Below the pieces are notes generated by a model that saw only the letters and a program-made list of their open reading frames with translations, ran no database searches and had not been told where the DNA came from. 49,287 bases of DNA from a virus, in the UHGV virus genome UHGV-0210521, one strand, 5' to 3'. The translations under genes were made by a program, and so were the position numbers. Every line of letters starts with the position of its first letter. Positions within the stretch are counted from its first letter, which is position 1. Positions 5,401-49,287 of the stretch are shown one piece after another.

Positions 5401-5474
5401 GTGACGTGGATGCGATCTTACTGCCGCTTATCCATGAGCGCCTCAATCGTCGCGACGAGGATACTGCCGTTTAA
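2457..5474 (+). CDS. hsdR: Type I restriction enzyme HsdR (nuclease plus SF2 ATPase/translocase)
   Basis: 1005 aa; Walker A SAGSGKS, DEAH box AVIVDEAHSS, N-terminal nuclease-like VLLVNGIPLVTLELK; start overlaps upstream stop (ATGA); GGAGG upstream. Confidence 0.85.
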   Translation: MMDTSERRFESEIEYWLTTQGAEFDRFETRDSQGFDRELCMYPADLIQFVKTTQPDQWAKLERAYHGRAEERFAKRVADQLDQRGVIEMLRRGVEDVGARFKLVYFAPGTDLNEALAEKYWQNQMSIMRQVHYSTKNENSVDTVLLVNGIPLVTLELKNQLTGQTYRDAIRQYKMDRSPSEKLFALGKRAVVHFAVDTDEAWMTTKPAGLDTVFLPFNRGVNNGAGNPPVEGKFKTAYLWEQVLAKDSLLDILHRFVQFVPGKDGSGRRARPKDKVIFPRFHQLDAVRALVKDAKEQGAGHNYLVQHSAGSGKSNTIAWLAHHLSNLHDDQQRVVFDSIIVITDRRVLDKQLQDTVFSMDHTAGVVVKVDKNARQLTDALGRGSRIIISTLQKFPFVDVSSIATDGKRFAVIVDEAHSSQTGQASERLKQVLADTAKAGEESEAELLDRYARAEAQVEAAELEIDEQIAADMTTHGRQANLSFFAFTATPKQKTLEIFGTPVAGGTPRPFHVYSMKQAIEEGFILDVLENYTTYRTYYKIGKKTADDPEYGKKQANKALGKYLALHPHNLRQKAEIIIEHFRSNVVHKIGGKAKAMLVTGSRLHAVRYFFAFQDYIRAKGYTDLGVLVAFSGTVEDDGQDYTEEQLNGFPEAELPDRFDTGEYQILLVAEKYQTGFDQPLLQTMYVDKKLHGVKAVQTLSRINRMCPGKSDTFVLDFVNSADDIQAAFQDYYVSTSISEETDPNIVYDLYHLIASYQLWRDEEIDGFATVFFREQKQQTNLDFGRLNAYLDPAVDRFDALDDEEKLEVRSAFNKFNRNYEFLTHIIRFDDEQLHKFAAYAKLLTRKLHIDGDPAPHLDDEVTLQYYRLQSVYEGSIDLQDRVGELKNSPKLGMPTADERERLSKILDSLNERWGTEFTNMDKVLEQVADDLAQDDEIQLRAHNTLDLFKIIYDEKMPDVMLSRMTQNQEFAMKYLSDPVFRGDVDAILLPLIHERLNRRDEDTAV

Positions 5475-5557: not shown

Positions 5558-5932
5558 ATGGCTGAATCAGAAACCTTTGGCACTTTCCTTGAGCAACATA
5601 GGAAAGACCAAGATCTCACCATGCGCAGGTTCGCAGACATGATCGGAGTCACTGCACCCTATTTGAGCGATATTGAAAAAGGGCGCAGGGCCGCCCCTGA
5701 CGCGAAGCTGGAGAATATTGCTGACGTACTTCACCTCAACCGCGAAGAACGGGAAAAGATGTACGACCTTGCCGCCCTCACGAGGGAGAACCAAGTATCG
5801 ACTGACTTGTCGGGCTATATTATGGAAACCGACATGGCGCGAGTTGCCCTTCGCCGAGCCAAGGAGCGAAATCTTAGTCAGCAACAATGGGCAGACATCC
5901 TCGACATCATCGAAGGTGAGGAGGACAAGTAG
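5558..5932 (+). CDS. XRE-family helix-turn-helix transcriptional regulator
   Basis: HTH segment LTMRRFADMIGVTAPYLSDIEKGRRAP; AGGAGG RBS 8 nt upstream of ATG 5558 (track ORF starts at 5498 but the internal ATG has the RBS). Confidence 0.7.
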   Translation: MAESETFGTFLEQHRKDQDLTMRRFADMIGVTAPYLSDIEKGRRAAPDAKLENIADVLHLNREEREKMYDLAALTRENQVSTDLSGYIMETDMARVALRRAKERNLSQQQWADILDIIEGEEDK

Positions 5933-6603
5933 TGAGTCTTGAGCCGAAATACATCAGCAAAGAAAATCTCGACGAACGGGCAGAAAAGCTCCTGTCGAGA
6001 TATCGAGGTGGCACTCTACTCGCCGTAGCGGCACCGCTCGATATCGAACACTTCGCAGAATTCGAGCTCGACGCCAAACTTGACTACCAGCGACTATCGG
6101 CAGATGACTCTGTGCTCGGAATGTCGGTCTTTCAAGATCTGACACTGCCTGTCGCAAGCGCTAGTGGGGCTCGCGCTCATGTTGAAATCCCTGCAAGAAC
6201 CATCGTGATTGACGATCGGGCGCTGGATGACTCACCAGAAGGTCGATTTCGGTTCACCATCGCACATGAGTGCGCGCACCTGATTTTGCACTCACGAATC
6301 TTTTATCGCGACCCTTCGATGTCATGCCCGAACAAGAGTGGTTACCTTCCGTTTACGGCTGAAACCGAAAATGTAGGGAGTGAGAAGTTCAACCGAGGCG
6401 AGTTTCAGGCTAACTATCTTGGCGCGGCCCTGCTTATGCCAAGGATGACCTTTTCACGGGCATTTCATGAGTTTGTGCCACTGCCATGGGCAGAGATGAC
6501 TGACCGTAATAAGCGTCAAGTCGTCTCGCAACTCGCAGACCTGTTCAACGTATCTCCGACCGCCGCCGCTCTTCGCATCAAACATCTCGAACTGGCCTCG
6601 TAA
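5932..6603 (+). CDS. ImmA/IrrE-family zinc metallopeptidase (HExxH)
   Basis: HECAHLILH motif; GTG start overlaps the stop of the HTH gene by 1 nt (translational coupling). Confidence 0.7.
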   Translation: MSLEPKYISKENLDERAEKLLSRYRGGTLLAVAAPLDIEHFAEFELDAKLDYQRLSADDSVLGMSVFQDLTLPVASASGARAHVEIPARTIVIDDRALDDSPEGRFRFTIAHECAHLILHSRIFYRDPSMSCPNKSGYLPFTAETENVGSEKFNRGEFQANYLGAALLMPRMTFSRAFHEFVPLPWAEMTDRNKRQVVSQLADLFNVSPTAAALRIKHLELAS

Positions 6604-10177: not shown

Positions 10178-12145
10178 ATGCGAACACTCTTCTGCGATAT
10201 CGAGACTTTCAGTCCTGTTCAGCTCGCCAAGACAGGCGTCTACCCGTATGCCGAGCACCCCGACTTCGACCTGCTCCTCTTCGGATATTCGATTGACGGC
10301 GGCCCGGTCGAGGTCGTGGATCTTGCAGGCGGCCAGCAGATCCCCGACAATGTGCTATCAGCTCTGGTGGATCCGGGTGTGGTCAAGTGGGCGCATAACG
10401 CCGCCTTCGAACGAGTCTGCTTGTCCGCCTGGCTACGCACGCATCATCCCGAACTGCTGGATGGCGGGTTTCTTGACCCAAGGCAGTGGCGGTGCACCAT
10501 GATCTGGTCCGCCTACCTCGGACTACCGATGAGCCTCGACGCAGTAGCCACAGTTTTGAAACTTGACGTTCAAAAAGACAGCGCCGGACGCAAGCTGATC
10601 AAGCAGTTCTGCACACCCGCCACACCCTCAGTCTTGAATGGCGGCAAACACAGGAATCCACCATCAGCGGATCCCGCCGGCTGGGCACATTTCATTGACT
10701 ACAACCGGCGCGACGTCGAAGTCGAACAAGCCATCCACGACAGACTGGCGTTTTTTCCGATGCCAGACTCCGAATGGGACACCTATGCCCTTGACCAACG
10801 CATTAATGATGCCGGGATTCTTCTCGACTACACGCTCGTCGATAATGCCGTTACCGTGGATGAGCACCACCGCAACGCGTCGCTTGCACGGGCACAGAAG
10901 CTCACAGGGTTGGACAATCCCAACTCGCCAATCCAACTCAAACAATGGCTCCACAACCACGGCTGCGAACTCGAATCACTAGCGAAAGCCGACGTCGATG
11001 CCGCCCTCGACACCGCGACCGGCGCGGTGAAAGAAGTCCTCGGACTCCGTGGTGATCTGGCGAAATCTTCGGTGAAGAAATACCAGGCGATGCACAACGT
11101 CGCAGGCAGTGACGGCCGGGCACGCGGGCTGATCCAGTTCTACGGAGCAGGACGCACTGGGCGCTTCGCAGGACGCCTCGTCCAAGTCCAAAACCTGCCA
11201 AGGAATTACCTGACAGATCTCGACCAAGCACGCACGCTCGTCAGAACAGGCAACCTTGATGCGCTTGAGCTGCTCTACGAGTCCGTGCCCGACACCCTCA
11301 GCCAACTCATCCGCACCGCATTCATCCCCAGCACCGGCCACAGGTTTATCGTTGCGGACTTTTCCGCAATCGAAGCGCGCGTTATCGCATGGCTCGCAGG
11401 AGAAACAACCACCCTGGCCGCCTTCCGCGACGGTAAAGACCTCTACTGCGAAACCGCATCGCGCATGTTCGGCGTCCCGGTCGAAAAGCACGGCATTAAT
11501 GGCGAGCTACGTCAAAAGGGGAAGATCGCGGTGCTCGCCTGTGGCTATGGCGGCTCAGTTGGTGCTCTCAAAGCCATGGGAGCCCTCACCATGGGACTCG
11601 CCGAGCATGAGCTCAAACCGATCGTGGACGCATGGCGGCAAGCCAACCCACACATCGTTGGGCTCTGGGCCGACGTCGAAGAAGCCGCGATCGCCGCGAT
11701 CACCTCGCGCCAGCCGATCCGCTTGCGTAACCTGCGATTCTCCGTTGAGTCCGGGATTCTCTTCATCGAACTGCCCTCAGGCAGGAGATTAGCGTATGTG
11801 CAGCCGCGTCTGGGTGAGAATCGTTGGGGTGGCACGTCCATCACCTACACCGGCACCACCGCAGCCAGACGTTGGGGACAGCTCGAAACCTACGGCGGGA
11901 AACTTGTCGAGAATATCGTCCAAGCAATCGCCCGTGATCTGCTCGTCACTGGCATGCACGCAGTCGCCAAGGCGGGGCATCGGATTGTGATGCATGTTCA
12001 TGATGAAATTGTCATCGACGAACCCGAAAATTCCGGCTTCACCGTGACTGATGCATGTGCTCTTATGTCGACGCTCCCAGCCTGGGCCGAAGGTTTGCCG
12101 TTGGATGCGGATGGGTATGAGTGCGCCTATTACCGTAAGGATTAG
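10178..12145 (+). CDS. Family A DNA polymerase (phage Pol I-like with 3'-5' exonuclease domain)
   Basis: 655 aa; exo motif FCDIETFS, pol motifs DFSAIEARVIAWLAGE, RQKGKIAVLACGYGGS, HVHDEIVID. Confidence 0.85.
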   Translation: MRTLFCDIETFSPVQLAKTGVYPYAEHPDFDLLLFGYSIDGGPVEVVDLAGGQQIPDNVLSALVDPGVVKWAHNAAFERVCLSAWLRTHHPELLDGGFLDPRQWRCTMIWSAYLGLPMSLDAVATVLKLDVQKDSAGRKLIKQFCTPATPSVLNGGKHRNPPSADPAGWAHFIDYNRRDVEVEQAIHDRLAFFPMPDSEWDTYALDQRINDAGILLDYTLVDNAVTVDEHHRNASLARAQKLTGLDNPNSPIQLKQWLHNHGCELESLAKADVDAALDTATGAVKEVLGLRGDLAKSSVKKYQAMHNVAGSDGRARGLIQFYGAGRTGRFAGRLVQVQNLPRNYLTDLDQARTLVRTGNLDALELLYESVPDTLSQLIRTAFIPSTGHRFIVADFSAIEARVIAWLAGETTTLAAFRDGKDLYCETASRMFGVPVEKHGINGELRQKGKIAVLACGYGGSVGALKAMGALTMGLAEHELKPIVDAWRQANPHIVGLWADVEEAAIAAITSRQPIRLRNLRFSVESGILFIELPSGRRLAYVQPRLGENRWGGTSITYTGTTAARRWGQLETYGGKLVENIVQAIARDLLVTGMHAVAKAGHRIVMHVHDEIVIDEPENSGFTVTDACALMSTLPAWAEGLPLDADGYECAYYRKD

Positions 12146-13086
12146 CTGTTGATTGTCCAGATGGGATCTTGTTTCCAGCTGGGGCTGGCACCTATGTGCG
12201 TTAGATCGACGCCAGGAATTTCGGTGGGGAAACTGTCTAGGACGTCGCTGATGGCCTGTATTTCAGCGGTGAAATTTCCTCGTCGCAAGAGGAATGCGGT
12301 GAGTACCAGCGCGGTGTACATACGTCCTGAAGAATGTGTCACGGCCGATAGCGTTTGGTCGTTGCGGCGGTGTTTGACCAGTGGACGGATAACGAGTTGC
12401 CTATTCCATAGTCTGGCGTGGTGAGCGCATATGTTACGAATGTAATTCGCAGTGCGCATCCACGATTCCAACTCGTCGGCACGTGCCAAGTACTTGTCAG
12501 CAATGCGACGACGCTGTTCGAAGGGAGCCAACGAAAACAGGGTCACGAGTTGTCCGAACTCAAGAATCTCGGTAACCACCCACACCGGCAAACGACCGTC
12601 GTGGGTCTGGTTGTAATGCTTGACGAAATCTTCTGTAGAGCGCGACTGTGTTTGGGTGAGCTTCTGCGTAAAGAATGCTGCTCTGTGATTCATCGCCCCC
12701 GATGGCCAAATCCGTTCGAGGTCGAGGTGAATGAACGGATCGATCTCACCCAGCACGTGCCCCACGTCAACTCGCAGGCACACCTCCAGCTTGCATAGCG
12801 CCTGCCACACAGCCAAGCGTAGCCGCTCATCAAACTCGTACAGCTCTACCACATGCCCCATACGTGCACCGAGAACGAAATGGTCCAAACGCCGTTGCGG
12901 CGAATCAGATGGAGCGATCTGACGCAACGGGTAGGAGTATCCCGAAAGCCGGTAATAGCCGACAGTAGATAACTCGCGGCGGTAATCACCGGCATCCAAT
13001 AGGCCACGACGAGTGAGAATATTAATCTGCTCATCGATACTGGCCCACGGTTTATCGACCACCAGCCCACCTGCTTCCAAAAACAT
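12142..13086 (-). CDS. Abi_2 family abortive-infection protein (AbiD/AbiF-like)
   Basis: 314 aa on the opposite strand; N-terminal ... INILTRRGLL ... VGYYRLSGYSYP signature; convergent with the polymerase gene. Confidence 0.7.
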   Translation of the reverse strand: MFLEAGGLVVDKPWASIDEQINILTRRGLLDAGDYRRELSTVGYYRLSGYSYPLRQIAPSDSPQRRLDHFVLGARMGHVVELYEFDERLRLAVWQALCKLEVCLRVDVGHVLGEIDPFIHLDLERIWPSGAMNHRAAFFTQKLTQTQSRSTEDFVKHYNQTHDGRLPVWVVTEILEFGQLVTLFSLAPFEQRRRIADKYLARADELESWMRTANYIRNICAHHARLWNRQLVIRPLVKHRRNDQTLSAVTHSSGRMYTALVLTAFLLRRGNFTAEIQAISDVLDSFPTEIPGVDLTHIGASPSWKQDPIWTINS

Positions 13087-34188: not shown

Positions 34189-34605
34189 ATGACTACCAAG
34201 AAGAACACTGAATCTGTTGTTGAACCTGGCCGCTCCGCCACCGTCAGCATCGGCGGTGAGAATTACGAGCTCGTGCTCACAACGAAAGCCACCCGTCTGA
34301 TTGCTGAGCGTTACGGCGGACTCGAACACCTGGGCAACGCCCTCGAAACCTCCGACGATCTGGGTAAAACACTGGGTGAGGTGATTTGGCTGATCACACT
34401 GCTGGCCAACCAATCAGTCCAGATCCACAACCACCGCCACCCAGACGACACGCGCCCAGAGCTGACCGAGGACGAGGTCGAACTGCTCACCGTGCCTGCT
34501 GATCTGGCGGACTATCGCGGCGCGATCGCCGAAGCCCTCCAGCGCGGCACCCGCCGAGACATCCTCACCGAGCCAGCCCCAAAAGCACCACCAGCGGACG
34601 CATAG
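34189..34605 (+). CDS. Tail assembly chaperone (G-like)
   Basis: 138 aa between major tail and tape measure genes; carries a slippery heptamer near its 3' end. Confidence 0.6.
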   Translation: MTTKKNTESVVEPGRSATVSIGGENYELVLTTKATRLIAERYGGLEHLGNALETSDDLGKTLGEVIWLITLLANQSVQIHNHRHPDDTRPELTEDEVELLTVPADLADYRGAIAEALQRGTRRDILTEPAPKAPPADA

Positions 34606-34799
34606 TCGAAAACGACAATGCCGTGTTCACGCGGCTGACCTATATCGGAATGGCCCACCTCCACCTCAGCAAAGTGGAGGTGGGCTTAACCGTGTTTGGT
34701 GAGCTGTTGGATCTCGTCGACTGCTGGCGACTCGAAACCGGACGCGCCCAACGCTTACGTCAATGGTTCATCGACGACGTGATTCCTGCCGGGATTTAG
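34578..34799 (+). other. Predicted -1 programmed frameshift site (CCCAAAA at 34578-34584) and -1 frame extension of the tail chaperone (GT-like product)
   Basis: X XXY YYZ heptamer in the correct phase of the chaperone frame; the -1 frame stays open for 71 codons to TAG 34797-34799. Confidence 0.5.
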
Positions 34800-35413
34800 A
34801 TACTGTTCCAGTGGGCTTTTAGTTCGTGAGCGAATTCTGTGGGCATTGATTGATGCCATTGATGACCCGCGTCTGGCACAACGATGAGGCGGGCATGTGG
34901 GATCTGTTGGCTGATGGTGCGGGCGGCAGGAAGATTCGCGCGGTCTTTCGAGCCGCACGCAATCGTCGTTGGAACCGTGATATTTCCAAGCTCTGGCTCG
35001 AAATCAATGGCTGATATTTGACGCAGGATTTCCAGCAACTGTTGCTTGGAAATCTGTGGTGGGCACACGAGACGCTCAGGCAAGACTCGCATGAGAACGC
35101 TTTGAATGCGCATCAATGCTTTAGGAGGGCGCGCCTGCGGAGCTGAAAGAAACAGCGACCGAACCATGTGCGGGTGCCGAATTGCCAGATCAAGACCCAT
35201 CACCGCGCCAAGAGATAGCCCAACCACGTCGACTGGATTATTCAGTGATGCGGCGAGTTCGTCCGTGCGCTCATGTAACGACCATGGCGTTCCTGATGGC
35301 TGATCGAAAACAGTGGGCGTGAGCGCGTCAATGCGCTCGAACTCGTTGATGACGTCATTCCAGGCTTGCGGGGTCTCACCGAGTCCGTGGAGGAAAAGCA
35401 CCGGAGTGCTCAT
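34796..35413 (-). CDS. Alpha/beta-hydrolase fold protein (esterase/lipase-like)
   Basis: 205 aa from ATG 35413; FLHGLGE, nucleophile elbow GLSLG, later Asp and DAGHQWH His motifs; opposite strand to the tail genes. Confidence 0.7.
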   Translation of the reverse strand: MSTPVLFLHGLGETPQAWNDVINEFERIDALTPTVFDQPSGTPWSLHERTDELAASLNNPVDVVGLSLGAVMGLDLAIRHPHMVRSLFLSAPQARPPKALMRIQSVLMRVLPERLVCPPQISKQQLLEILRQISAIDFEPELGNITVPTTIACGSKDRANLPAARTISQQIPHARLIVVPDAGHQWHQSMPTEFAHELKAHWNSI

Positions 35414-35610
35414 CGCTGCAAACCACGAGTGGCAAGGTGCCACGCTGCAAGCCCGATCGCACATATTGCGAAACCTGATGCATTAGCGATGCCCGTGACG
35501 GGATGCACGACACCGCTCATCCACAAAACAGCGAAAACGACCGTACCGATGACGAGTAAAGCAAACAACGGCCATACCCACCGGCGATTAGTTACAACAT
35601 TGGCCCACAC
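35410..35610 (-). CDS. Small membrane protein (two predicted helices), co-oriented with and overlapping the hydrolase start
   Basis: 66 aa; hydrophobic segments WVWPLFALLVIGTVVFAVLW and FAICAIGLAAW; its stop overlaps the hydrolase ATG (ATGA on the minus strand). Confidence 0.45.
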   Translation of the reverse strand: MWANVVTNRRWVWPLFALLVIGTVVFAVLWMSGVVHPVTGIANASGFAICAIGLAAWHLATRGLQR

Positions 35611-35669
35611 GATTCCTCCTCATCCTCTAGCCAATTTTAACCCCCAGCAACGCGAAGGAATACAGACCT

Positions 35670-38348
35670 ATGGCTGACTCCACTTTTGGTTTGAAGATTG
35701 GGCTTGAGGGTGAGCGTGAGTTCAAGCGCGCGATCACGGATATTAACCGTGAGATGCGGGTTCTCGGCTCGGAGATGAAGCTCGTAGCCTCCTCGTTTGA
35801 TAAGAACGACAAGTCCGCCGAAGCCCTCACCGCCCGTAACCAAGTGCTGAGCAAAGAAATCGAAGCTCAAAAAGCCAAGATCGAAACCCTCCGCCAAGCC
35901 CTGCAGAACAGCGCCACAAGCTTTGGTGAGAACGATAGTCGGACGAAGAATTGGCAGATCCAGCTCAACAACGCAGGCGCGGAGCTCAACCGGCTCGAAG
36001 GCGAACTCAAAGCCAACAAAGACGCTCTCTCAGATTTCGGGAACGAGGCAGACGGCGCGGGAGATGACGCCAACAATGCGGCGAAGGACGCAGGACGTCT
36101 TGAGGGCGCGGTGGATGATCTCGGCGACGAGATGGACACCACCAGTGGCAAGACCCGCATCTTCGGCGACGTGCTCAAAGGGAACCTCGCCTCCGAAGCC
36201 ATCATCGCCGGCGTCAAAGGTATCGGGCATGCGATCGCCAGTATTGGGCGCGGCATGGTAGGCGCGTTGAAAGAGGGCGTGGAGTACAACGCCCGCATGG
36301 AGCAATACACCACCTCGTTTACCACGATGCTGGGTGACCAAGCCAAAGCCCAACAACTCGTTAACGACCTGAAAGTTCAGGCGGCAAAGACCCCGTTTGG
36401 GATGGAGGACCTCGCGGGCAACATGCAAACCCTCCTGAGCTTCGGAATGAGCCTTGAGGATGCGAAAAAGCACCTGAACGAAATCGGCGACATCTCCCAA
36501 GGCGATGCGGTGAAGATGGAATCGCTGACCCTTGCCTTCGCCCAAATGTCCTCGACCGGCAAACTCACGGGCCAGGACTTGCTGCAGATGATCAACGCCG
36601 GATTCAACCCCCTCGAAGAAATCTCCCGCAAGACCGGCAAAAGTATTGGTGAGCTGAAAGAGGATATGGCGAAGGGCGCTATTTCGGCTGACATGGTCGC
36701 TGACGCATTCGCCAGTGCTACTGCTGAAGGCGGGCGTTTCTACGGGGCTATGGACGCCCAATCCAAGACCTTTAGCGGCCAGTTGGCGACAATGCAGGAT
36801 GGGGTGGAAAACCTCAAAGGCCTCCTCGCGGGCGGACTGAGTGAGGCGTTGGCGGGTTCGGTGTTGCCGATGGTCAACGGGTGGATCGACGAACTAACTG
36901 CAGCGTTCGAAGAAGGCGGAACGCCTGCGTTGATTGACACTCTCGGTAGCGTTTTGCAGGAAGCTCTCGCGTTTATTGCTGACCAACTACCCATGGTGGT
37001 CGAGACCGGCATGTCCATCCTCACCGCACTTCTCGAAGGCATCATCGAAGTGTTGCCACAGGTGGCCGAGACGGCGGTGACGCTGATTATCGCGCTGGTG
37101 GAGGCGATCATCGAAGCACTGCCGTCCTTGTTGGAGGCGGCGATTCAGATCATCGCAACCCTCGTCTCTGGTATCGGCGAAGCGCTACCGGAACTGGTTC
37201 CGGCCGCAGTGGAGATGCTCATGGCTTTGGTGCAGGGCCTGGTCGATAACCTGCCGCTTTTGTTGGATGCGGCGTTGCAGCTCATCACCGGACTCGCCGA
37301 AGGCCTCATCGCAGCCATCCCCGTCATCATCGAAGCGCTCCCGCAGATCATCACCGGCATAGTGACCTTCCTTGTGGGTGCGATCCCGCAGATCATCGAA
37401 GCAGGAATCCAGCTGCTCACCGCGTTGATTGGGGCGTTGCCACAGATCATCACAGCAATCGTCGCAGCACTCCCGCAGATTATTACTGCGATCGTCAGCG
37501 GCGTGGTGGGTGCGATCCCGCAGCTCATCGACGCAGGCATTCAACTGCTGACGGCGTTGATTGGGGCGTTGCCACAGATCATTACAACGATTGTGGCCGC
37601 GTTGCCGCAGATTATTGCCAGTATTGTGTCGGTGATTGGTGGGGCTATCCCGCAACTCGTTCAAGCCGGAATCCAACTCTTGACCGCGTTGGTGCGGAAT
37701 CTGCCGCAGATTATTTCCACGATCGTCGCAGCAATCCCGCAAATCGTTATCGGCATTGTCTCGGCCGTTGGCCAGGGCGTGTGGCAGATGGCGGAGGCGG
37801 GCAAGAACCTCGTCTACGGCCTGTGGAACGGAATCCAATCCCTGGCGGGGTGGTTGTGGGATTCGGTGTCGAACTGGGCGCGCGGGATTTGGGACTCCAT
37901 CATTGGCTTCTTCGGCATCCACAGCCCGTCTCGCAAGATGGCCTGGGCAGGACGGATGCTCGTCGAAGGCCTCGCAGGCTCTATCAAAATCGATGGCAAC
38001 AAGGCTGTCACTGCTGCCACTGGTTTGGCTAGGGACACGATGGACGCCTTCAGCGAGCTTGAAGACGGGCTTCATGTGCCGATCGAGGCGGTTGCGGACC
38101 TGCAGGTACCTGCCGTCGATCTCGCCCCACAACCCATAGTTATCAGCCGCGATACGAGTGGCGGTGCTGATAGTGAGCGTGTGGATGTCGCGAGCATCGT
38201 CGACGCGACAGCGAAGCGGATCCTCGGGTCTTTGGATATTTCGGTGACGTTGTCGGATGGGACGCTGGTGGGCAAGCTCGCACCCGCTTTCGACAAGCAA
38301 CTTGCTCGTCTTGATCGGCGGCAGACCGTGATGGCAGGAGGCTACTAA
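35670..38348 (+). CDS. Tail tape measure protein
   Basis: 892 aa, coiled N-terminus, long hydrophobic repetitive core, location after the chaperone. Confidence 0.85.
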   Translation: MADSTFGLKIGLEGEREFKRAITDINREMRVLGSEMKLVASSFDKNDKSAEALTARNQVLSKEIEAQKAKIETLRQALQNSATSFGENDSRTKNWQIQLNNAGAELNRLEGELKANKDALSDFGNEADGAGDDANNAAKDAGRLEGAVDDLGDEMDTTSGKTRIFGDVLKGNLASEAIIAGVKGIGHAIASIGRGMVGALKEGVEYNARMEQYTTSFTTMLGDQAKAQQLVNDLKVQAAKTPFGMEDLAGNMQTLLSFGMSLEDAKKHLNEIGDISQGDAVKMESLTLAFAQMSSTGKLTGQDLLQMINAGFNPLEEISRKTGKSIGELKEDMAKGAISADMVADAFASATAEGGRFYGAMDAQSKTFSGQLATMQDGVENLKGLLAGGLSEALAGSVLPMVNGWIDELTAAFEEGGTPALIDTLGSVLQEALAFIADQLPMVVETGMSILTALLEGIIEVLPQVAETAVTLIIALVEAIIEALPSLLEAAIQIIATLVSGIGEALPELVPAAVEMLMALVQGLVDNLPLLLDAALQLITGLAEGLIAAIPVIIEALPQIITGIVTFLVGAIPQIIEAGIQLLTALIGALPQIITAIVAALPQIITAIVSGVVGAIPQLIDAGIQLLTALIGALPQIITTIVAALPQIIASIVSVIGGAIPQLVQAGIQLLTALVRNLPQIISTIVAAIPQIVIGIVSAVGQGVWQMAEAGKNLVYGLWNGIQSLAGWLWDSVSNWARGIWDSIIGFFGIHSPSRKMAWAGRMLVEGLAGSIKIDGNKAVTAATGLARDTMDAFSELEDGLHVPIEAVADLQVPAVDLAPQPIVISRDTSGGADSERVDVASIVDATAKRILGSLDISVTLSDGTLVGKLAPAFDKQLARLDRRQTVMAGGY
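37340..37780 (+). repeat. Tandem 132-bp (44-aa) repeats inside the tape measure gene, about 3 units
   Basis: Repeating unit GAIPQ(I/L)I(E/D)AGIQLLTAL ... LPQII ... IVS seen in translation; period 132 bp between 37382, 37514 and 37646. Confidence 0.6.
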
Positions 38349-42530: not shown

Positions 42531-42986
42531 ATGTCTCTACACGCCATCTGGCACGCCATTCAAGCCGGCATCGCTGGTATTGGTGCGTGGCTCGCCGCTT
42601 ATCTTGGAGGTCTCGACGGCCTCGTCTATGCGCTGATTGTTTTCACTATCGCCGACTACATCACCGGGGTGCTGGCCGCCATCAACGAGCGCCGCCTCAG
42701 CTCATCCGTCGGTTTTAGGGGTATCAGCCGCAAAATCCTCATCTTCACCCTCGTCGGCCTCGCCCATTTGATCGACGTCCATATTCTCGGAGCACCCGGC
42801 GTGCTGCGAGCGGCTGTCATCTTCTTCTACCTATCCAACGAAGGCATCTCCCTCGTGGAGAACGCCACCCGCCTCGGCCTACCCGTCCCATCCCAAATGC
42901 GTGGGGCGCTCGATGCGATCGCCAACCGCGCCGAAACAAGACCCTCACTGACCGAACCACCAACCACTGAAAAGGAGATTCACTGA
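42531..42986 (+). CDS. Holin
   Basis: About 150 aa with 3 hydrophobic helices and a charged C-terminus, immediately upstream of the endolysin; AAAGGA RBS before ATG 42531. Confidence 0.6.
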   Translation: MSLHAIWHAIQAGIAGIGAWLAAYLGGLDGLVYALIVFTIADYITGVLAAINERRLSSSVGFRGISRKILIFTLVGLAHLIDVHILGAPGVLRAAVIFFYLSNEGISLVENATRLGLPVPSQMRGALDAIANRAETRPSLTEPPTTEKEIH

Positions 42987-43801
42987 TGAAGAATTGGAAC
43001 ACGCTTGAGGCTGACATCGACCTCATCATGAACACACACTACACGCCCGGCAGGAATGGTAGGCGGATCGATAAGGTCATCATTCACCACAACGCCGGAA
43101 ACCTCACCATTAGGGGCTGCTACGACGTGTGGCAAACGCGTCCAGCTTCCGCCCACTACCAAGTCCAAACCGACGGACGCATCGGCCAGTTGGTGTGGGA
43201 TCGCGATACCGCCTGGCATGCAGGCAACTTTGCCGCCAACACCACCAGTATCGGCATCGAGCATGCGGATGTGTCCTCGAACCCGTGGGCTGTGTCGGAG
43301 GCGTGCCTCGATAACGGAGCACACCTCGTGGCGGCCGTTTGCAAGTTCTACGGTCTTGGCCGCCCGGCTTGGGGCAAGAACGTCTTCGGGCACAAGGACT
43401 TTTCTGCGACTGCTTGTCCGGCTTCTCTTGCTGGTTCTCAGCATGCTGCCTACATGTCCCGCGCACAGTCTTGGTATGACCAGATGAGCGGTAGTGCACC
43501 AGCACCCGCTCCTGCAGCGCCGAATATCGACGCTCTCGCTGATGCAGTGATTCGCGGCGATTACGGGAACGGTGAGGAGCGTAAGCGTTGCCTCGGAGCC
43601 AACTACGCCGCTGTCCAACAGCGCGTGAACGAGAAGCTCTCTGGCAACGCACCTGCCGCGAAGCCAGCAGGGCCGAACATTGATGCTCTTGCCGATGCCG
43701 TTATTCGCGGCGAGTACGGCAACGGTGAGGAACGTAAGCGCCGACTCGGAAATCTCTACAGCGCCGTACAAGCTCGCGTGAATGCCAAGCTCGGCTACTA
43801 A
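42986..43801 (+). CDS. Endolysin: N-acetylmuramoyl-L-alanine amidase (Amidase_2/PGRP) with two C-terminal CW_7 (Cpl-7-type) repeats
   Basis: Catalytic region HHNAGN ... AWHAGN ... GHKDF ... CP; two copies of NIDALADAVIRG(D/E)YGNGEERKR. Confidence 0.85.
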   Translation: MKNWNTLEADIDLIMNTHYTPGRNGRRIDKVIIHHNAGNLTIRGCYDVWQTRPASAHYQVQTDGRIGQLVWDRDTAWHAGNFAANTTSIGIEHADVSSNPWAVSEACLDNGAHLVAAVCKFYGLGRPAWGKNVFGHKDFSATACPASLAGSQHAAYMSRAQSWYDQMSGSAPAPAPAAPNIDALADAVIRGDYGNGEERKRCLGANYAAVQQRVNEKLSGNAPAAKPAGPNIDALADAVIRGEYGNGEERKRRLGNLYSAVQARVNAKLGY

Positions 43802-44543: not shown

Positions 44544-44589
44544 ACACTTGGTTTAGAGCGTGTATAGACCTAACGCGAAAGGAGAAAAC

Positions 44590-45840
44590 GTGGCACACAT
44601 CAGTGTGGTGACACCAGTTCGGTCGCCTGCCCCGAAACTGGTCAACGTGGCGGCATACGCGAGGGTCTCAACCAACGGCACAGAGCAGTTAGCATCCCTA
44701 TCGGCGCAGGTTTCGTATTACTCGCGCCTGATCCAATCCACACCCGGATGGGCCTACGTCGGCGTGTTCACCGACGAGGGTATCACCGGCACGTCAACAA
44801 AATCCCGACAAGGCCTGGCCGATCTGATGGACGCAGCCAGGAGTGGGGGTGTCGATATTGTGTTGTGTAAATCAATCTCACGCCTAGCCCGCAACACAAT
44901 CGACCTGCTCGCTACGGTCCGTGAGCTGAAAGACCTTGGCGTGGCCGTACGGTTCGAACGCGAACGCATCGACACCCTTAGCGCTGACGGGGAACTGCTG
45001 TTAACCTTGCTGGCCTCATTCGCCCAAGAAGAATCACGCTCACTATCCCACAACGTCAAATGGGCGATCCGGAACCGATACAAGAGCGGGGGCACAAACT
45101 CCTTCGTTGTCTATGGATACAAATGGGCAGACGGCCAGTTCACCATCATCGAAGAAGAAGCCAAGATCGTGCGCTTACTGTTTGCGAATTTCTTGGACGG
45201 GATTAGCCCGGAGAAAACCGCGACGATGCTCAATGCTGAAGGTAAACGCTCTCGGGGAGGGGGACGGTTCTACGGGTCAGTGTTTCGTCGCATGCTCGAA
45301 AATGAGCGCTACAAGGGCTGCCAAATGCTACAGAAAATGTACCGCCCCACAATCCAAGCACCCACACGCTCCCTCAACGACGGGGAGCTGCCGCGATACT
45401 GGGTCGACAATGCACTACCAGCCATCATTGACGAAACAACCTTTGACGCCGTTCAGAAAGAAATCGCGCACAGGCGTGAGGTGGGCCCGGCTGCCACCCC
45501 GTCAAAAAACACGGGCGTATTCACCGGACGGATCTGCTGCGGCGCGTGCGGGAAGAACTATCAACGCAAAACCCGCACCTACAAGTCTGGAACCTCATAC
45601 AAGTTCTGGCGCTGCTGGAGTGCCTGCACCGGAAACGGAAACCCCTGTAGGGGGCACAACCTGCGCGAAACACTCCTCGAACACGCCTGCGCAGACATGC
45701 TCGGCACCCAGGGTTTCGACCCTGTCCAGGTTGGCGAGCAGGTCGTGATGATCGAGGCCTTCGAGCATCAGCTCACCTTCCACCTCGCAGATGGAACCAT
45801 GATGCCGGTGGGCTTAACCAGTGAGGGGTGGTTGGCATGA
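44590..45840 (+). CDS. Large serine recombinase (resolvase-type catalytic domain, recombinase domain, zinc ribbon)
   Basis: AAYARVSTNGTEQL catalytic region, ... SRLARN ..., Cys-rich CCGACG ... C-terminus; AAAGGAG RBS before GTG 44590. Confidence 0.85.
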   Translation: MAHISVVTPVRSPAPKLVNVAAYARVSTNGTEQLASLSAQVSYYSRLIQSTPGWAYVGVFTDEGITGTSTKSRQGLADLMDAARSGGVDIVLCKSISRLARNTIDLLATVRELKDLGVAVRFERERIDTLSADGELLLTLLASFAQEESRSLSHNVKWAIRNRYKSGGTNSFVVYGYKWADGQFTIIEEEAKIVRLLFANFLDGISPEKTATMLNAEGKRSRGGGRFYGSVFRRMLENERYKGCQMLQKMYRPTIQAPTRSLNDGELPRYWVDNALPAIIDETTFDAVQKEIAHRREVGPAATPSKNTGVFTGRICCGACGKNYQRKTRTYKSGTSYKFWRCWSACTGNGNPCRGHNLRETLLEHACADMLGTQGFDPVQVGEQVVMIEAFEHQLTFHLADGTMMPVGLTSEGWLA

Positions 45841-47414
45841 GTCGCACGGTCACAGCGATACCCGCAACAAAGAAACTTGGGAATGTCACAACCCCGTCCG
45901 GGGTACCAGCGCGCAGACGGGTGGCGGCGTATGCTCGCGTTTCTACTGAGATGGAAGAACAAACCTCCTCGTATGAGGCTCAGATCGACTACTACACCAC
46001 CTACATTCGCTCACGTAGTGATTGGCAGTTCGCGGGCATGTACTCCGATGAGGGCATCTCTGGCACCTCCATGAAACGTCGCGAAGGTTTCCAAACCATG
46101 ATCAATGACGCCCTGGCAGGCAAAATCGACCTGATCCTCACCAAGAGTGTGTCCCGGTTCGCACGCAACACCGTCGACTCGCTCACTACCGTGCGCAAGC
46201 TCAAGGATGCAGGCGTCGAGGTCTATTTTGAGAAGGAAAATATTTACACCTTCGACGCCAAAGGCGAGCTATTGATCACGATCATGAGCTCACTGGCGCA
46301 AGAAGAATCCCGCTCGATCTCCGAGAACGTCACCTGGGGGCACAGGAAGCGTTTTCAAGATGGGAAAGTCATGGTGCCCTACAAATCCCTACTCGGATAC
46401 AAGAAAGGAGCAGACGGCAGCCTCGTCATCGACGAAACCCAAGCTCCGACCGTCAGGCTGATCTACCAGCTGTTCCTTGACGGGATGGCCATCAGCGAAA
46501 TCAAAACCGAACTCGCTGCCCGCAAGATCCTCACCCCACGCGGGAAAGAAGTGTGGTCGACATCGACAGTGCGCTCCATCCTGTCGAACGAGAAATACAA
46601 AGGCGATGCCCTGCTTCAAAAGACGTTCACCACCGATTTCCTTACTAAGAAGATGAAGGTCAACGAAGGCGAAGTACCCCAATACTACGTAACAGGCAAC
46701 CACGAGCCGATTATTGCTCCACGCATCTGGGATCAAGTGCAATACGAGCTCGCCACCAGGCATGGCAACATATCGTCAGCGAAGGTCGGCTTGTTCTCCA
46801 CCCGGCTCAAATGTGCTCGGTGTGGGGTGTGGTATGGGCGTAAGACGTGGGCGTCGAACACGAAATACAAGTACACAGTCTGGCAATGCAACCACAAATA
46901 CACAGACGAACATCCCTGTAGCAGCGCGACGGTGAAAGACGAGCAGATCAAGGATTCTTTCGTGCAAGCGCTCAATCAACTGATCGCCCGCCGTCCGCAG
47001 CAAAGCCAGCTACCGCAGGTGCTTGGCGACATGTTCGGTACGAGCCGTTTGGAAGAACAGGCCGCTGCCTGCCAAACAAAAATCGTGGAGCTGACCGAGC
47101 AGATCGAGGCGCTGATTGCGGAAAACCAGCGGTGTGCGCTCAACCAGGACGCCTACCAAGCCCGCTACACCGAACTCGATACTATCTACCGTAAGACGCT
47201 CGCACGTAAAACAAGCCTGGAAGCAGATATTGCAGCGAACACTGCCAAGCATGCCGCCGTCACCACAGCCCTAGGCGATTTGACGGGCGAACCTGTGAGC
47301 GAGTTTCACCCCGCACAATGGAGCGCTCTCATCGATCACGCCATCGTAGACGAGGACGGGATCCGGTTCGTGTTCCGTACCGGTGAACAGGTGAGGATTG
47401 CCCTGAAAGGGTGA
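45837..47414 (+). CDS. Large serine recombinase (second, translationally coupled)
   Basis: AAYARVSTEMEEQ, SRFARN, CARCG zinc ribbon, C-terminal coiled-coil-like region; ATGA overlap with the first recombinase gene. Confidence 0.85.
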   Translation: MSRTVTAIPATKKLGNVTTPSGVPARRRVAAYARVSTEMEEQTSSYEAQIDYYTTYIRSRSDWQFAGMYSDEGISGTSMKRREGFQTMINDALAGKIDLILTKSVSRFARNTVDSLTTVRKLKDAGVEVYFEKENIYTFDAKGELLITIMSSLAQEESRSISENVTWGHRKRFQDGKVMVPYKSLLGYKKGADGSLVIDETQAPTVRLIYQLFLDGMAISEIKTELAARKILTPRGKEVWSTSTVRSILSNEKYKGDALLQKTFTTDFLTKKMKVNEGEVPQYYVTGNHEPIIAPRIWDQVQYELATRHGNISSAKVGLFSTRLKCARCGVWYGRKTWASNTKYKYTVWQCNHKYTDEHPCSSATVKDEQIKDSFVQALNQLIARRPQQSQLPQVLGDMFGTSRLEEQAAACQTKIVELTEQIEALIAENQRCALNQDAYQARYTELDTIYRKTLARKTSLEADIAANTAKHAAVTTALGDLTGEPVSEFHPAQWSALIDHAIVDEDGIRFVFRTGEQVRIALKG

Positions 47415-47499: not shown

Positions 47500-49287
47500 G
47501 TGAACGATAGTGTAATGGATCAGGTTGTTGAAGGCGAGTATGAGTCGGCGAAGGAAAAATCTGTCGCTGGCCAGAACGCGATCCGTCAGCTATCGCAGCC
47601 GGTGAAAGGCAAACTGTTTATCGCGCAGGTTTTGGCTTTTCTCTCTGGTGTGTTGGCTATTGCCCCGTATGTGGCTTTGGTGGAGCTTGGCAGAGAACTT
47701 ATGCAAGACCGGGTGGACCCGGCGCGGGTGAACTGGATCGTGATGCTTCTCGTCAGCGCATACATGGCCCGGTTGACCTTATATTTTGTTGCATTGGGCG
47801 TGACGCATTTTATTGACCTGTCGTTGCGTAATCAAATGCGCCGCCAGATTGCCGCCCGAATGTCGACTGCTCCGCTGTCGTGGTTTACCCGCGAGGGTGA
47901 GGGGAAGATCCGCAAGACCATTCAGGATGATACGTCCACGGTGCACACAGTGATCGCGCACGGGCCGATTGAGAAACTGAACGCGATCGTATCCCCGCTC
48001 GCCTTGTTAGCCTATGCGTTCGTGGTGGATTGGCGGCTCGCTCTGCTGTCGATTGCGACGATTCCGATCTATGTGGGCATGTATGGCATGTCGATGCGTG
48101 GGATGAATGAGAAGACCGCCCAAATGGACACCAAGCTCGCTCAGGTTTCGGCAACGATGGCCGAGTTCGTTGCCGGTATCTCAGTGGTGAAAGCGTTCGG
48201 CAAGGTTGGCCAAGCACATAAAGCCTATTTAGATGCAGCTAACGAGTTTTCTAAGTTCTACCGGGCTTGGTGTATGCCGCTGGTGTCGATGTCGGTCGCC
48301 TCATTTTCGTGGGTGTCGATCCCGGTGTTGTTGATCGTGAACCTTGGCGGTGGCGCGTTGATGATGAACGCCGGTTGGGTGAGCATCTACGAGGTGATAA
48401 CGACCACGTTGATCGCCTTGGTGTTGCCGGGAGCGTTGATGGCAGTCGCAACGATCGCCTGGTCGTACCAGCTCGCAGGGTCTGCGGCAGTACGGCTGGT
48501 GAACGTCATGGAGCTACCGGCATTGCCTCAGCCAGATATGCCGCAGACGCCAAAGGGTCATGATATCGAGATTCGGGGTGTGTCGTATGCCTATGACGAG
48601 ACCCAAGCGTTAGACGAAGTGAGCCTGAGCATTCCGGCAGGCACGGTGACCGCGCTGGTTGGGCCTTCGGGCGCGGGAAAGTCGACGTTGGCGAGTTTGA
48701 TTGCCCGCTTCGATGATCCAGATGCTGGCACGATCACTATTGGCGGGGTTGATCTAAAGAGCATTTCCCAGGATGTGTTGTATTCGACGGTCGCATTCGT
48801 CCTGCAAGATGCACAGCTTATTCGCGACACCATTCGAAACAACATCGCTCTTGGCGCGCCAGACGCAACCTTGGATCAGGTGCGGCAGGCGGCGCAGGCG
48901 GCGCAGATCGACGAGTTCATCATGAGCCTGCCAGATGGTTACGACACTGTGTTGGGTGAGGATACCCACGTTTCGGGCGGGCAGGCAGCCCGTATCGCGA
49001 TCGCCCGGGCGCTCATGGTTGATGCCCCAGTGTTGGTGTTGGACGAGGCGACGGCGATGGCGGACCCGGAATCGGAATCGAAAATCCAACAAGCTCTCTC
49101 GACTCTTGCCAAAGGCAGAACCGTGATTGTGATCGCCCACCGACTGGCCTCGATCAGAGGAGCAGACCAAATCGTCGTCATGGAACGCGGGCGCATTGCT
49201 GTGGTCGGTAAACACGACGAGCTGTTGGGTAATGCGCACTATCAGGCACTTCTTGCCCAAGGTGCATGCGAGGAGATGACACGATGA
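47500..49287 (+). CDS. ABC transporter, fused permease/ATP-binding protein (type I exporter)
   Basis: N-terminal transmembrane domain, Walker A GPSGAGKST, signature VSGGQAARIAIARAL, Walker B VLVLDEATA; GTG start; stop at the window end. Confidence 0.85.
   Translation: MNDSVMDQVVEGEYESAKEKSVAGQNAIRQLSQPVKGKLFIAQVLAFLSGVLAIAPYVALVELGRELMQDRVDPARVNWIVMLLVSAYMARLTLYFVALGVTHFIDLSLRNQMRRQIAARMSTAPLSWFTREGEGKIRKTIQDDTSTVHTVIAHGPIEKLNAIVSPLALLAYAFVVDWRLALLSIATIPIYVGMYGMSMRGMNEKTAQMDTKLAQVSATMAEFVAGISVVKAFGKVGQAHKAYLDAANEFSKFYRAWCMPLVSMSVASFSWVSIPVLLIVNLGGGALMMNAGWVSIYEVITTTLIALVLPGALMAVATIAWSYQLAGSAAVRLVNVMELPALPQPDMPQTPKGHDIEIRGVSYAYDETQALDEVSLSIPAGTVTALVGPSGAGKSTLASLIARFDDPDAGTITIGGVDLKSISQDVLYSTVAFVLQDAQLIRDTIRNNIALGAPDATLDQVRQAAQAAQIDEFIMSLPDGYDTVLGEDTHVSGGQAARIAIARALMVDAPVLVLDEATAMADPESESKIQQALSTLAKGRTVIVIAHRLASIRGADQIVVMERGRIAVVGKHDELLGNAHYQALLAQGACEEMTR

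Follow-up and report, generated by a model that had tools for sequence, protein, structure and literature searches.

A reverse-oriented hydrolase and membrane-protein cassette in a variable slot of the tail operon of a temperate Actinomycetaceae phage

We analysed the virus genome UHGV-0210521, a stretch of 49,287 nucleotides (nt) called the window below, and in particular a pair of minus-strand genes that lies between its tail assembly chaperone and tape measure genes. The pair consists of a gene for a 66-amino-acid (aa) two-helix membrane protein with a GTG start (35410..35610; ORF list and AlphaFold2 (AF2) model) and a gene for a 205-aa alpha/beta-fold serine hydrolase (34796..35413; ORF list, Pfam, phrog and AF2). 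It is very probably a horizontally exchanged accessory cassette that sits in a cargo hotspot and encodes an intact serine hydrolase together with a partner having two transmembrane (TM) segments. Tentatively, and with somewhat less than even confidence, we propose that the cassette acts in defence or exclusion.

A variable slot in the tail operon

The slot is bounded by plus-strand tail genes. On the left it borders the gene for the gpG tail assembly chaperone with its gpT -1 frameshift extension (34189..34799). gpG itself (34189..34605) is tail-chaperone-like (phrog_2115, 1.1e-19), and the gpT open reading frame (ORF; 34623..34799), lying in the -1 frame of gpG, matches phrog_10988 (7e-12). 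An in-frame slippery heptamer, C CCA AAA, is present at 34578-34584, and from there the -1 frame is open to 34799, with the gpT stop codon at 34797-34799; gpG followed by gpT in the -1 frame is the usual gpG/gpGT arrangement. RNA structure 3' of the slip site was not significant (z = -0.69), and the argument is independent of it. The right boundary is the gene for the 892-aa tape measure protein (TMP; 35670..38348; PF20155, 4.9e-29; phrog_58, 1.5e-94), which starts with the ATG at 35670. The cassette occupies the 870-nt gap between the gpT stop (34799) and this ATG, and the stop codons of the hydrolase and gpT share 4 nt (34796-34799).

Within the cassette, the TGA of the small gene and the ATG of the hydrolase overlap as ATGA (35410-35413), and because of this overlap the hydrolase is probably translationally coupled to the small membrane-protein gene. 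Read from its first ATG, the hydrolase ORF covers 34796..35464 on the minus strand (222 aa); the 205-aa form begins at ATG 35413 (MSTPVLFLHG...), which is the start in all homologues and according to most gene callers. The two genes were found together in more than 40 loci, and this recurrence, together with ratios of nonsynonymous to synonymous divergence (dN/dS) of 0.12-0.29 at useful divergence, shows that they are genuine genes and not chance ORFs. An earlier note on this DNA had described two minus-strand genes with a stop/start overlap between the chaperone and the tape measure, and the ORFs, their overlap and the flanks are as it stated.

A profile of the major tail protein (MTP) yielded more than 512 relatives in IMG/VR, of which 80 were fetched; gpG, gpT and the start of the tape-measure gene were located in each of them, and 68 loci could be scored. 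The gpT/tape-measure junction spans only 20-90 nt in 42 of these 68 related phages, in agreement with the claim of the same note that it is normally uninterrupted, and it contains an insert in the other 26. The inserts are 450-900 nt long, with a single one of 4.2 kb, and relatives that share the cassette of the window have a junction of 874 nt on the tblastn-based measure. In the clade closest to the window, with MTPs at least 85% identical, the slot is occupied in 21 of 28 loci by ∼10 different cargos, all of them reverse-oriented, and in the loci with MTPs ∼70-76% identical (L122-L173) it is mostly empty. The main ORFs of the inserts run opposite to the tail genes, the only exception being the 4.2-kb insert in L126.

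The cargos start at the gpT stop or within ∼12 nt of it, and end 30-60 nt before the tape-measure ATG. The 3' end of gpT and the 5' end of the tape-measure gene (atggctgactc...) are conserved in empty and occupied slots alike, and may act as recombination anchors. Two loci, L094 and L098, have MTPs 97-98% and TMPs 93-97% identical to those of the window and yet carry a different cargo, from which we conclude that slot swaps are recent.

Besides the hydrolase/membrane-protein cassette and its 50%-diverged version (in L101 and L119), the slot cargos include two toxin-antitoxin (TA) pairs, namely a Gp49/HigB-like toxin with an HI1420-type antidote and a PIN toxin with a MazE/AbrB antitoxin, as well as a 262-aa PD-T4-5 (Abi-like) protein (PADLOC, 1.9e-14). 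The other cargos are a family of 133-184-aa proteins with an RWW-SQREH motif, a Zn-ribbon/coiled-coil protein of ∼155 aa, an uncharacterised 171-aa protein with a hydrophobic, TM-like N-terminus, and an uncharacterised 212-aa protein.

The commonest alternative cargo is the RWW-SQREH family, whose motif can be written as (G/S)RWW-S-(Q/I)R-H. Its members, all on the minus strand relative to the tail genes, are found at L094:8211-8675, L098:8213-8677, L103:8229-8783, L104:6449-6850, L105:2152-2553, L113:8216-8743 and L121:8194-8601. Three members were searched (those of L094, L103 and L104), and none of them belongs to a Pfam family or matches PADLOC significantly, which makes the family a candidate for a novel accessory or defence gene of prophages.

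The hydrolase and its membrane partner

The hydrolase scores above threshold with Pfam families Abhydrolase_6 (PF12697; 54.5 bits against a cut-off of 26.3, 3.4e-14) and Abhydrolase_1 (PF00561; 46.7 bits against 25.8, 4.2e-12), and matches the esterase/lipase family phrog_789 (1.4e-13). Its AF2 model has a pLDDT of 93.8 and was matched by Foldseek to solved alpha/beta hydrolases with a probability of 1.0 and TM-scores of 0.78-0.88 at 16-21% identity, the structural neighbours being MenH, the enol-lactonase PcaD, Est816, which degrades acyl-homoserine lactones, BpoC, aryl esterases, BioH, RutD, and plant D14/KAI2. The key residues are the HG oxyanion motif (9-10), the elbow G65-L-S67-L-G69, D157, and H184. 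In an alignment of 38 homologues (A1), down to 39% identity, H9, G10, G65, L66, S67, L68, D157, and H184 are invariant, and G69 is nearly so, its sole replacement being G69D in P0031. Across 112 loci, H9, G10, G65, S67, G69, D157, and H184 are all intact, with no stop codon, in 93. Judged by its residues, the hydrolase thus appears to be catalytically intact, with a Ser-Asp-His triad. The earlier note had recognised an alpha/beta-fold hydrolase by its GLSLG and downstream Asp and His; two of the checks it had proposed, a search with hidden Markov models and structure prediction, were run, and both gave that answer.

The hydrolase shares its core fold with MenH, PcaD, BioH, RutD, the aryl esterases, and Est816 (∼260-270 aa), and has the same HG motif, G-x-S-x-G elbow, and order and spacing of Ser, Asp and His as the MenH/PcaD/BioH/RutD group. 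By contrast with that group, it is ∼60 residues shorter and has a reduced cap domain, and it is encoded in a phage tail operon, not in a men, pca or bio operon. The shorter cap also explains why profile matches to PDB entries (E-values ∼1e-22) fall into two stretches. Neither a signal peptide nor a TM segment was found in the hydrolase, whose sequence opens directly in strand 1, and we infer a cytoplasmic esterase, lactonase or thioesterase for small substrates. This leaves the "esterase/lipase-type effector" of the earlier note not established, given the cytoplasmic look of the protein, the missing signal peptide and matches only to generic small-substrate hydrolases. The description "membrane-anchored" is likewise unproven, the hydrolase itself having no TM segment.

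More specific enzyme names were rejected, because all scores with the NCBIfam equivalogs were far (3-6 times) below the cut-offs. An identical protein is named MenH (SHCHC synthase) in nr; here, TIGR03695 gave 63.8 bits against a cut-off of 208.55 and PRK11126 gave 29 against 261, and the gene is in a phage tail operon rather than a menaquinone operon. The names PcaD, BioH, RutD, and macrolide esterase EstT fared no better, their NCBIfam scores also being far under the cut-offs. A fold search of BFVD returned mostly alpha/beta hydrolases of giant viruses and a few weak matches in phages and insect viruses, with no informative phage homologue.

The small protein is predicted to form a helical hairpin with helices at residues 2-32 and 37-65 (AF2, pLDDT 84). 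Hydropathy concurs, so that its description in the earlier note as a 66-aa two-helix membrane protein stands. Both termini have short basic ends, and a conserved motif, HPVTGIAN, is located at the turn and the start of helix 2. In the family as a whole the same region is the best-conserved stretch, (H/S)PVT-I-N--GF; W11, F26, and T39 are invariant in both alignments of the small protein (A5 and A6), and N43 is invariant in A5 and nearly invariant in A6. The protein has no Pfam, NCBIfam or PADLOC family, and a profile search with it retrieved only 46 clusters, all from the same set of organisms. In eight of eight places the next gene after the small-protein gene is the hydrolase, with an overlap of 4 nt in four places and of ∼44 nt, as called, in the other four.

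Two names were considered for the small protein and rejected. A CrgA-like identity (E-values 0.01-0.06) was far under the cut-offs and was put down to a TM match driven by composition. The name "sodium:proton antiporter", which NCBI uses for some relatives of 54-71 aa (P0129, P0141, P0162), looks like a propagated mis-annotation, since no Pfam match backs it.

Age, selection, and spread of the cassette

The cassette differs from its neighbours in base composition, the GC content at third codon positions (GC3) being 0.58 for the hydrolase and 0.54 for the small gene, against 0.68-0.71 for gpG, gpT, TMP, and the major capsid protein (MCP). Synonymous divergence (dS) was calculated pairwise against eight close relatives. 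The hydrolase has values of 0.01-0.12 and the small gene of 0.00-0.02 (0.18 against L016), compared with 0.2-1.1 in the gpT and tape-measure genes that flank them in these phages. Synonymous divergence of the cassette is thus ∼5- to 30-fold (median ∼5-fold) lower than that of the flanking tail genes, which argues that the cassette is much younger than the phage backbones carrying it and entered these diverged backbones recently. At larger divergence, with remnants included, the hydrolase has a dN/dS of 0.19-0.29 and the small gene one of 0.12-0.27; the cassette is under purifying selection.

The pairing occurs also in diverged phages, which suggests a long association of the cassette with the slot. 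L101 and L119 carry a hydrolase of ∼50% identity, and their small protein is related by profile only (no tblastn hit at 1e-4). In L021 and L023, whose tape measure is only 42% identical, an unrelated 119-aa ORF with two predicted TM segments (5622-5981 in both) precedes a 50%-identical hydrolase, and may be a non-homologous replacement of the membrane partner.

The cassette is also found where the phage has decayed. In the decayed prophages L009 and L018, it lies amid host genes between the gpT gene and the first 190-240 codons of the tape-measure gene, with a gpG stub beside it in L009 only. Debris of the gpT and tape-measure genes remains around the cassette in L029 and L031, and tail-gene debris remains beside it in L026, a half-deleted prophage. 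The cassette DNA of L012/L013 is ∼92% identical to the lineage of L026, L029, and L031, with no tail-gene debris detected beside it, and none was seen beside the cassettes of L010/L020 and the Mobiluncus loci. A segment of ∼907 bp comprising the promoter region, the small gene, and the hydrolase is ∼90% identical at the DNA level among Varibaculum, Propionimicrobium, Actinotignum, and Arcanobacterium loci with different flanks.

Several copies of the hydrolase are damaged next to an intact small gene, a sign that constraint has been relaxed in places. Nonsense alleles of this kind are found in L004/L014 (Q119*), in L033 (Q186*), and, with a stop at about residue 171, in L032 and L184-186, and the G69D variant, P0031, is in L003/L096. 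These are three independent nonsense alleles in addition to G69D, and one allele is the most widely deposited variant, "MULTISPECIES ... [Actinomycetes]".

In total, the cassette has spread to at least nine genera, and in five or more of these its proteins are 94-100% identical. Essentially one and the same prophage tail region with the cassette (94-98% protein identity; L014-L017, P0007) is present in five genera, represented by Arcanobacterium hippocoleae, Actinobaculum massiliense, Gleimia hominis, Winkia neuii, and Gulosibacter hominis, the last belonging to a different family from the other four. Such a distribution points either to very recent spread or to a host range that is unusually broad. 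Cultured carriers are Winkia neuii DSM 8576, Actinobaculum massiliense FC3, Gleimia hominis CCUG 57540, and Arcanobacterium hippocoleae DSM 15539; as such strains exist, the function is directly testable.

Outside this set, one group of hydrolase homologues stands in another mobile context. In L176-L178, a 41%-identical homologue is reverse-oriented between two DUF6112 genes, in a cluster that also carries M23 peptidase, ParB_N, and DUF2637 and looks like an actinobacterial conjugative element. Other distant homologues are found near Mu-transposase/ArdC/Prim-Pol genes, and the hydrolase family may be a recurrent cargo of several kinds of mobile elements. A megablast search of the 3-kb region against INPHARED phages gave no match, tblastn with the hydrolase against phages gave only 30% matches in two unannotated Listeria phage fragments, so that deposited phages provide no annotation for the cassette, and the literature was searched for it in prophages of Actinomycetaceae with no relevant result.

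Possible signals for expression are located in the 59 nt that separate the divergently oriented small and tape-measure genes (35611..35669). Its plus strand contains the ribosome-binding site of the tape measure, GAAGGAA. On the minus strand, the Shine-Dalgarno sequence GAGGAGG (35615-35621) is ahead of the GTG at 35610, and a -10-like hexamer, TAAAAT (35634-35639), is 24 nt upstream of it. When five cassettes of the window type are aligned, only the ..AAT of this hexamer is kept. In the Varibaculum/Mobiluncus-type cassettes, by comparison, a GATAAT hexamer ∼38 nt before the start codon is invariant; the sequence TATGGGATAATCAGTGA, with the shape of an extended -10 element, is present in 10 of 11 such copies, and GATAAT is kept also in chromosomal Mobiluncus copies whose remaining flanks differ. 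The evidence for a promoter is thus a -10-only element from comparative alignment, which is weaker than a two-hexamer match. If the cassette does have its own promoter, directed away from the tail operon, it could be expressed in the lysogen.

The rest of the window is that of a temperate siphovirus of Actinomycetaceae, with large serine recombinases (44560-47414) and an Amidase_2/CW_7 endolysin (42986-43801), and with genes for a family-A DNA polymerase, a D5-type primase, and a C5 methylase. The polymerase gene is immediately followed by a minus-strand AbiD/Abi_2 gene (12142-13086; Pfam Abi_2, 5.4e-46; PADLOC AbiD, 1.7e-50) with a GC3 of 0.60, below that of the structural genes; as this is the other conspicuous reverse-oriented gene of the phage, its identity fits the idea that reverse-oriented genes here are lysogen-expressed defence cargo. 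At the left end, type I restriction-modification genes (40-5474, plus strand), which may be those of the phage or of flanking host DNA, encode an 806-aa N6_Mtase protein, possibly a fused M/S subunit, followed by a 1005-aa HsdR-like helicase/nuclease. The recombinases are two adjacent plus-strand genes (44560-45840 and 45828-47414), each with Resolvase, Recombinase, and Zn_ribbon_recom domains, and they are followed by a third long ORF (47500-49287, plus strand) that runs off the window. Tandem serine integrases are unusual, and these may mark nested or adjacent elements.

Possible functions and known systems

Under the reading that we favour, the cassette would have a promoter within the 59-nt intergenic region and be transcribed from it antisense to the late tail operon, and for this reason its products would be made in the lysogen while the tail genes are silent. 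They would then shield the lysogen, and hence the prophage, from other phages, which is the least secure step. The small protein would reside in the membrane, where it would expose its conserved turn on the outer face and block injection or serve as the effector, and the hydrolase would be its enzymatic partner on the cytoplasmic side, acting on a small ester, a lactone or a lipid-linked substrate. The variability of the slot, its TA and Abi cargos, the recent swaps, and the composition, age, and selection of the cassette all fit a defence function. So do the -10-like element, the persistence in decayed prophages and the AbiD gene of the same phage, and, by analogy, the precedents discussed below for the site (HK97 gene 15) and for a hydrolase with a TM protein, as well as the homologue in the conjugative element. 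The suggestion of the earlier note that this is an accessory, defence or exclusion unit accordingly finds partial support: it agrees with the TA/Abi cargo of the slot, the -10-like element and the retention in decayed prophages.

Several observations weigh against a defence function. A sigma-70 two-hexamer scan found no promoter and no -35 element at the cassette, and a terminator scan found none downstream of it on the minus strand, terminator-like sites being at chance level. Neither protein had a hit at E-values up to 0.1 in PADLOC-DB v2, in which the hydrolase + TM system of Rousset et al. is represented. Esterases and lactonases for small molecules are what the hydrolase resembles, and no known defence effector, and homologues at 40-57% identity are found in ordinary chromosomal contexts from which the membrane partner is absent. 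The copies with nonsense mutations or G69D indicate that the hydrolase can be dispensable. Finally, guilt by position is weak evidence. The stronger statement, that the small protein and the minimal alpha/beta hydrolase make up an anti-phage system of prophages that is new to the literature and that the gpT/tape-measure junction is an unmined defence hotspot, we regard as rather unlikely.

The cassette could instead be a lysogenic-conversion enzyme, in which a host-derived cytoplasmic esterase or lactonase with a membrane helper raises host fitness, perhaps by detoxifying an antimicrobial or a signal that is an ester or lactone, or by remodelling a lipid or a cell-envelope precursor. We consider this explanation rather doubtful, but substantial enough to be weighed. 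It agrees with the closest neighbours of the hydrolase (MenH, 3-oxoadipate enol-lactonase, Est816, aryl esterases, BioH, and RutD) and with chromosomal homologues located beside PadR/ABC transporters, TetR + MFS, or redox/detoxification genes, and many morons, the accessory genes of prophages, are fitness factors, not defence genes (PMC3594210). Retention in remnants shows a benefit to the host without saying which. On the other hand, all specific family scores are far under the cut-offs, the chromosomal neighbourhoods are not conserved, the recognisable cargos of the same slot are TA or Abi and not metabolic, and nonsense alleles of the hydrolase are found beside an intact small gene.

The latter alleles also bear on an addiction module similar to TA systems, in which the small hydrophobic protein would be a membrane toxin neutralised by the hydrolase, or the reverse, and the prophage would be stabilised. 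Small two-TM peptides can be membrane toxins, and the cassette consists of two overlapping reverse-oriented genes in a slot that elsewhere holds two classical TA pairs. Still, a hydrolase acting as an essential antidote is hard to reconcile with the nonsense alleles next to an intact small gene in L004/L014, L032, L033, and L184-186; hydrolase homologues moreover occur without the partner, and neither protein matches a TA family in Pfam, NCBIfam or PADLOC, so that we find this explanation improbable. A role in the lytic cycle, either as a holin-like two-TM protein with a LysB-like esterase or as a helper in tape-measure assembly or injection, also seems improbable. The phrog_789 esterase/lipase match (1.4e-13) and the adjacent tape-measure gene speak for it, as does the small protein, which is similar to class II holins in size and two-TM layout, with ends that would face inwards as judged from the basic termini only. 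However, the cassette runs opposite to the late operon, most relatives with these tail genes lack it or carry something else in its place, it is kept where the phage is gone, and the lysis region of the phage is elsewhere, the endolysin gene being 7 kb away. The more specific candidate, a lysis esterase of the mycobacteriophage LysB type, was rejected as well: the cassette is reverse-oriented in the tail operon and not in a lysis cassette, and its Actinomycetaceae hosts are presumably not mycolate-containing and would therefore lack the LysB substrate. Both the addiction and the lytic explanations are thus made less likely by the nonsense alleles and the orientation, and by a cassette that is patchily distributed and is kept without the phage.

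Hotspots of phages and satellites are a productive source of bacterial immune systems, and have been mapped mainly in enterobacterial P2/P4 elements. The gpT/tape-measure junction is a comparable swap-slot in a tail-module family with more than 500 IMG/VR relatives, from human-associated Actinomycetaceae and related taxa. The range of the family probably includes Firmicutes, since deposited phages of this phylum (Erysipelothrix phage phi1605, Streptococcus phage Javan630, and Ruminococcus phages) have MTPs 68-75% identical, a striking cross-phylum conservation of the tail module. As the flanks, i.e., the 3' end of gpT and the 5' end of the tape-measure gene, are conserved, the slot is easy to harvest computationally. 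For about two thirds of the cargo types no function is known. Among the cargos, the hydrolase/membrane pair has spread most widely, and its survival of prophage decay argues that it pays its way in the host. If the pair is indeed an anti-phage system and the junction a defence hotspot, the RWW-SQREH, Zn-ribbon/coiled-coil, 171-aa, and 212-aa cargos would be further new systems.

Prophage-mediated defence genes of actinobacteriophages, reportedly described, for example, by Dedrick et al. (2017; cited in PMC10884400), are one group for comparison. Such genes are expressed in the lysogen, often encode membrane proteins, are often opposed to their lytic neighbours, and belong to temperate siphoviruses; mostly they are near the immunity region or the genome centre. 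We know of none that is a pair of an alpha/beta hydrolase and a two-TM protein.

The closest precedent for the site is gene 15 of HK97, to which the term "moron" was first applied and which lies between the tail assembly chaperone and tape-measure genes (PMC3594210). HK97 gp15, a small protein of the inner membrane, mediates superinfection exclusion by blocking the injection of genomes (Juhala et al., 2000; Cumby et al., 2012; PMC3594210); its homologues are mostly chromosomal (YebO), and the gene is thought to be expressed from the prophage and is absent from relatives (PMC3594210). The cassette resembles it in occupying the same site, in being an add-on absent from relatives, in encoding a small, here predicted, membrane protein, and in having chromosomal relatives. 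HK97 gp15, in contrast, is the product of a single gene with no enzyme partner, in a phage of a Gram-negative host, and it has no detectable sequence similarity to the small protein: YebO was absent among the Pfam matches listed for the small protein (the window member and the best 25 of 28 families, E-values up to 10). As expected of a moron, the cassette is absent between the same genes in relatives and has a base composition unlike that of its neighbours; unlike gene 15, it is inverted with respect to the tail operon and has no terminator of its own, with no terminator-like site downstream and a stop codon overlapping that of gpT. The insertion, which the earlier note took for anomalous, is real and interrupts a tight junction, but it is less anomalous than implied because this is the archetypal moron site.

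As for interchangeable cargo, the nearest parallel is provided by the hotspots of antiviral genes in P2-like phages and in satellites of the P4 type (Rousset et al., 2022; PMC9122126). They too are fixed sites between conserved genes of mobile elements and hold TA, Abi, and uncharacterised cargo, but they belong to another phage family, and the site described here is inside a tail operon. One validated defence system from these hotspots consists of a HAD-like hydrolase and a TM protein (PMC9122126); as the hydrolase of the cassette has an alpha/beta and not a HAD-like fold, that system would be an architectural analogue only. As far as we could find, the cargo family and this hotspot are undescribed; the kind of arrangement they represent is known, and its position is a textbook one.

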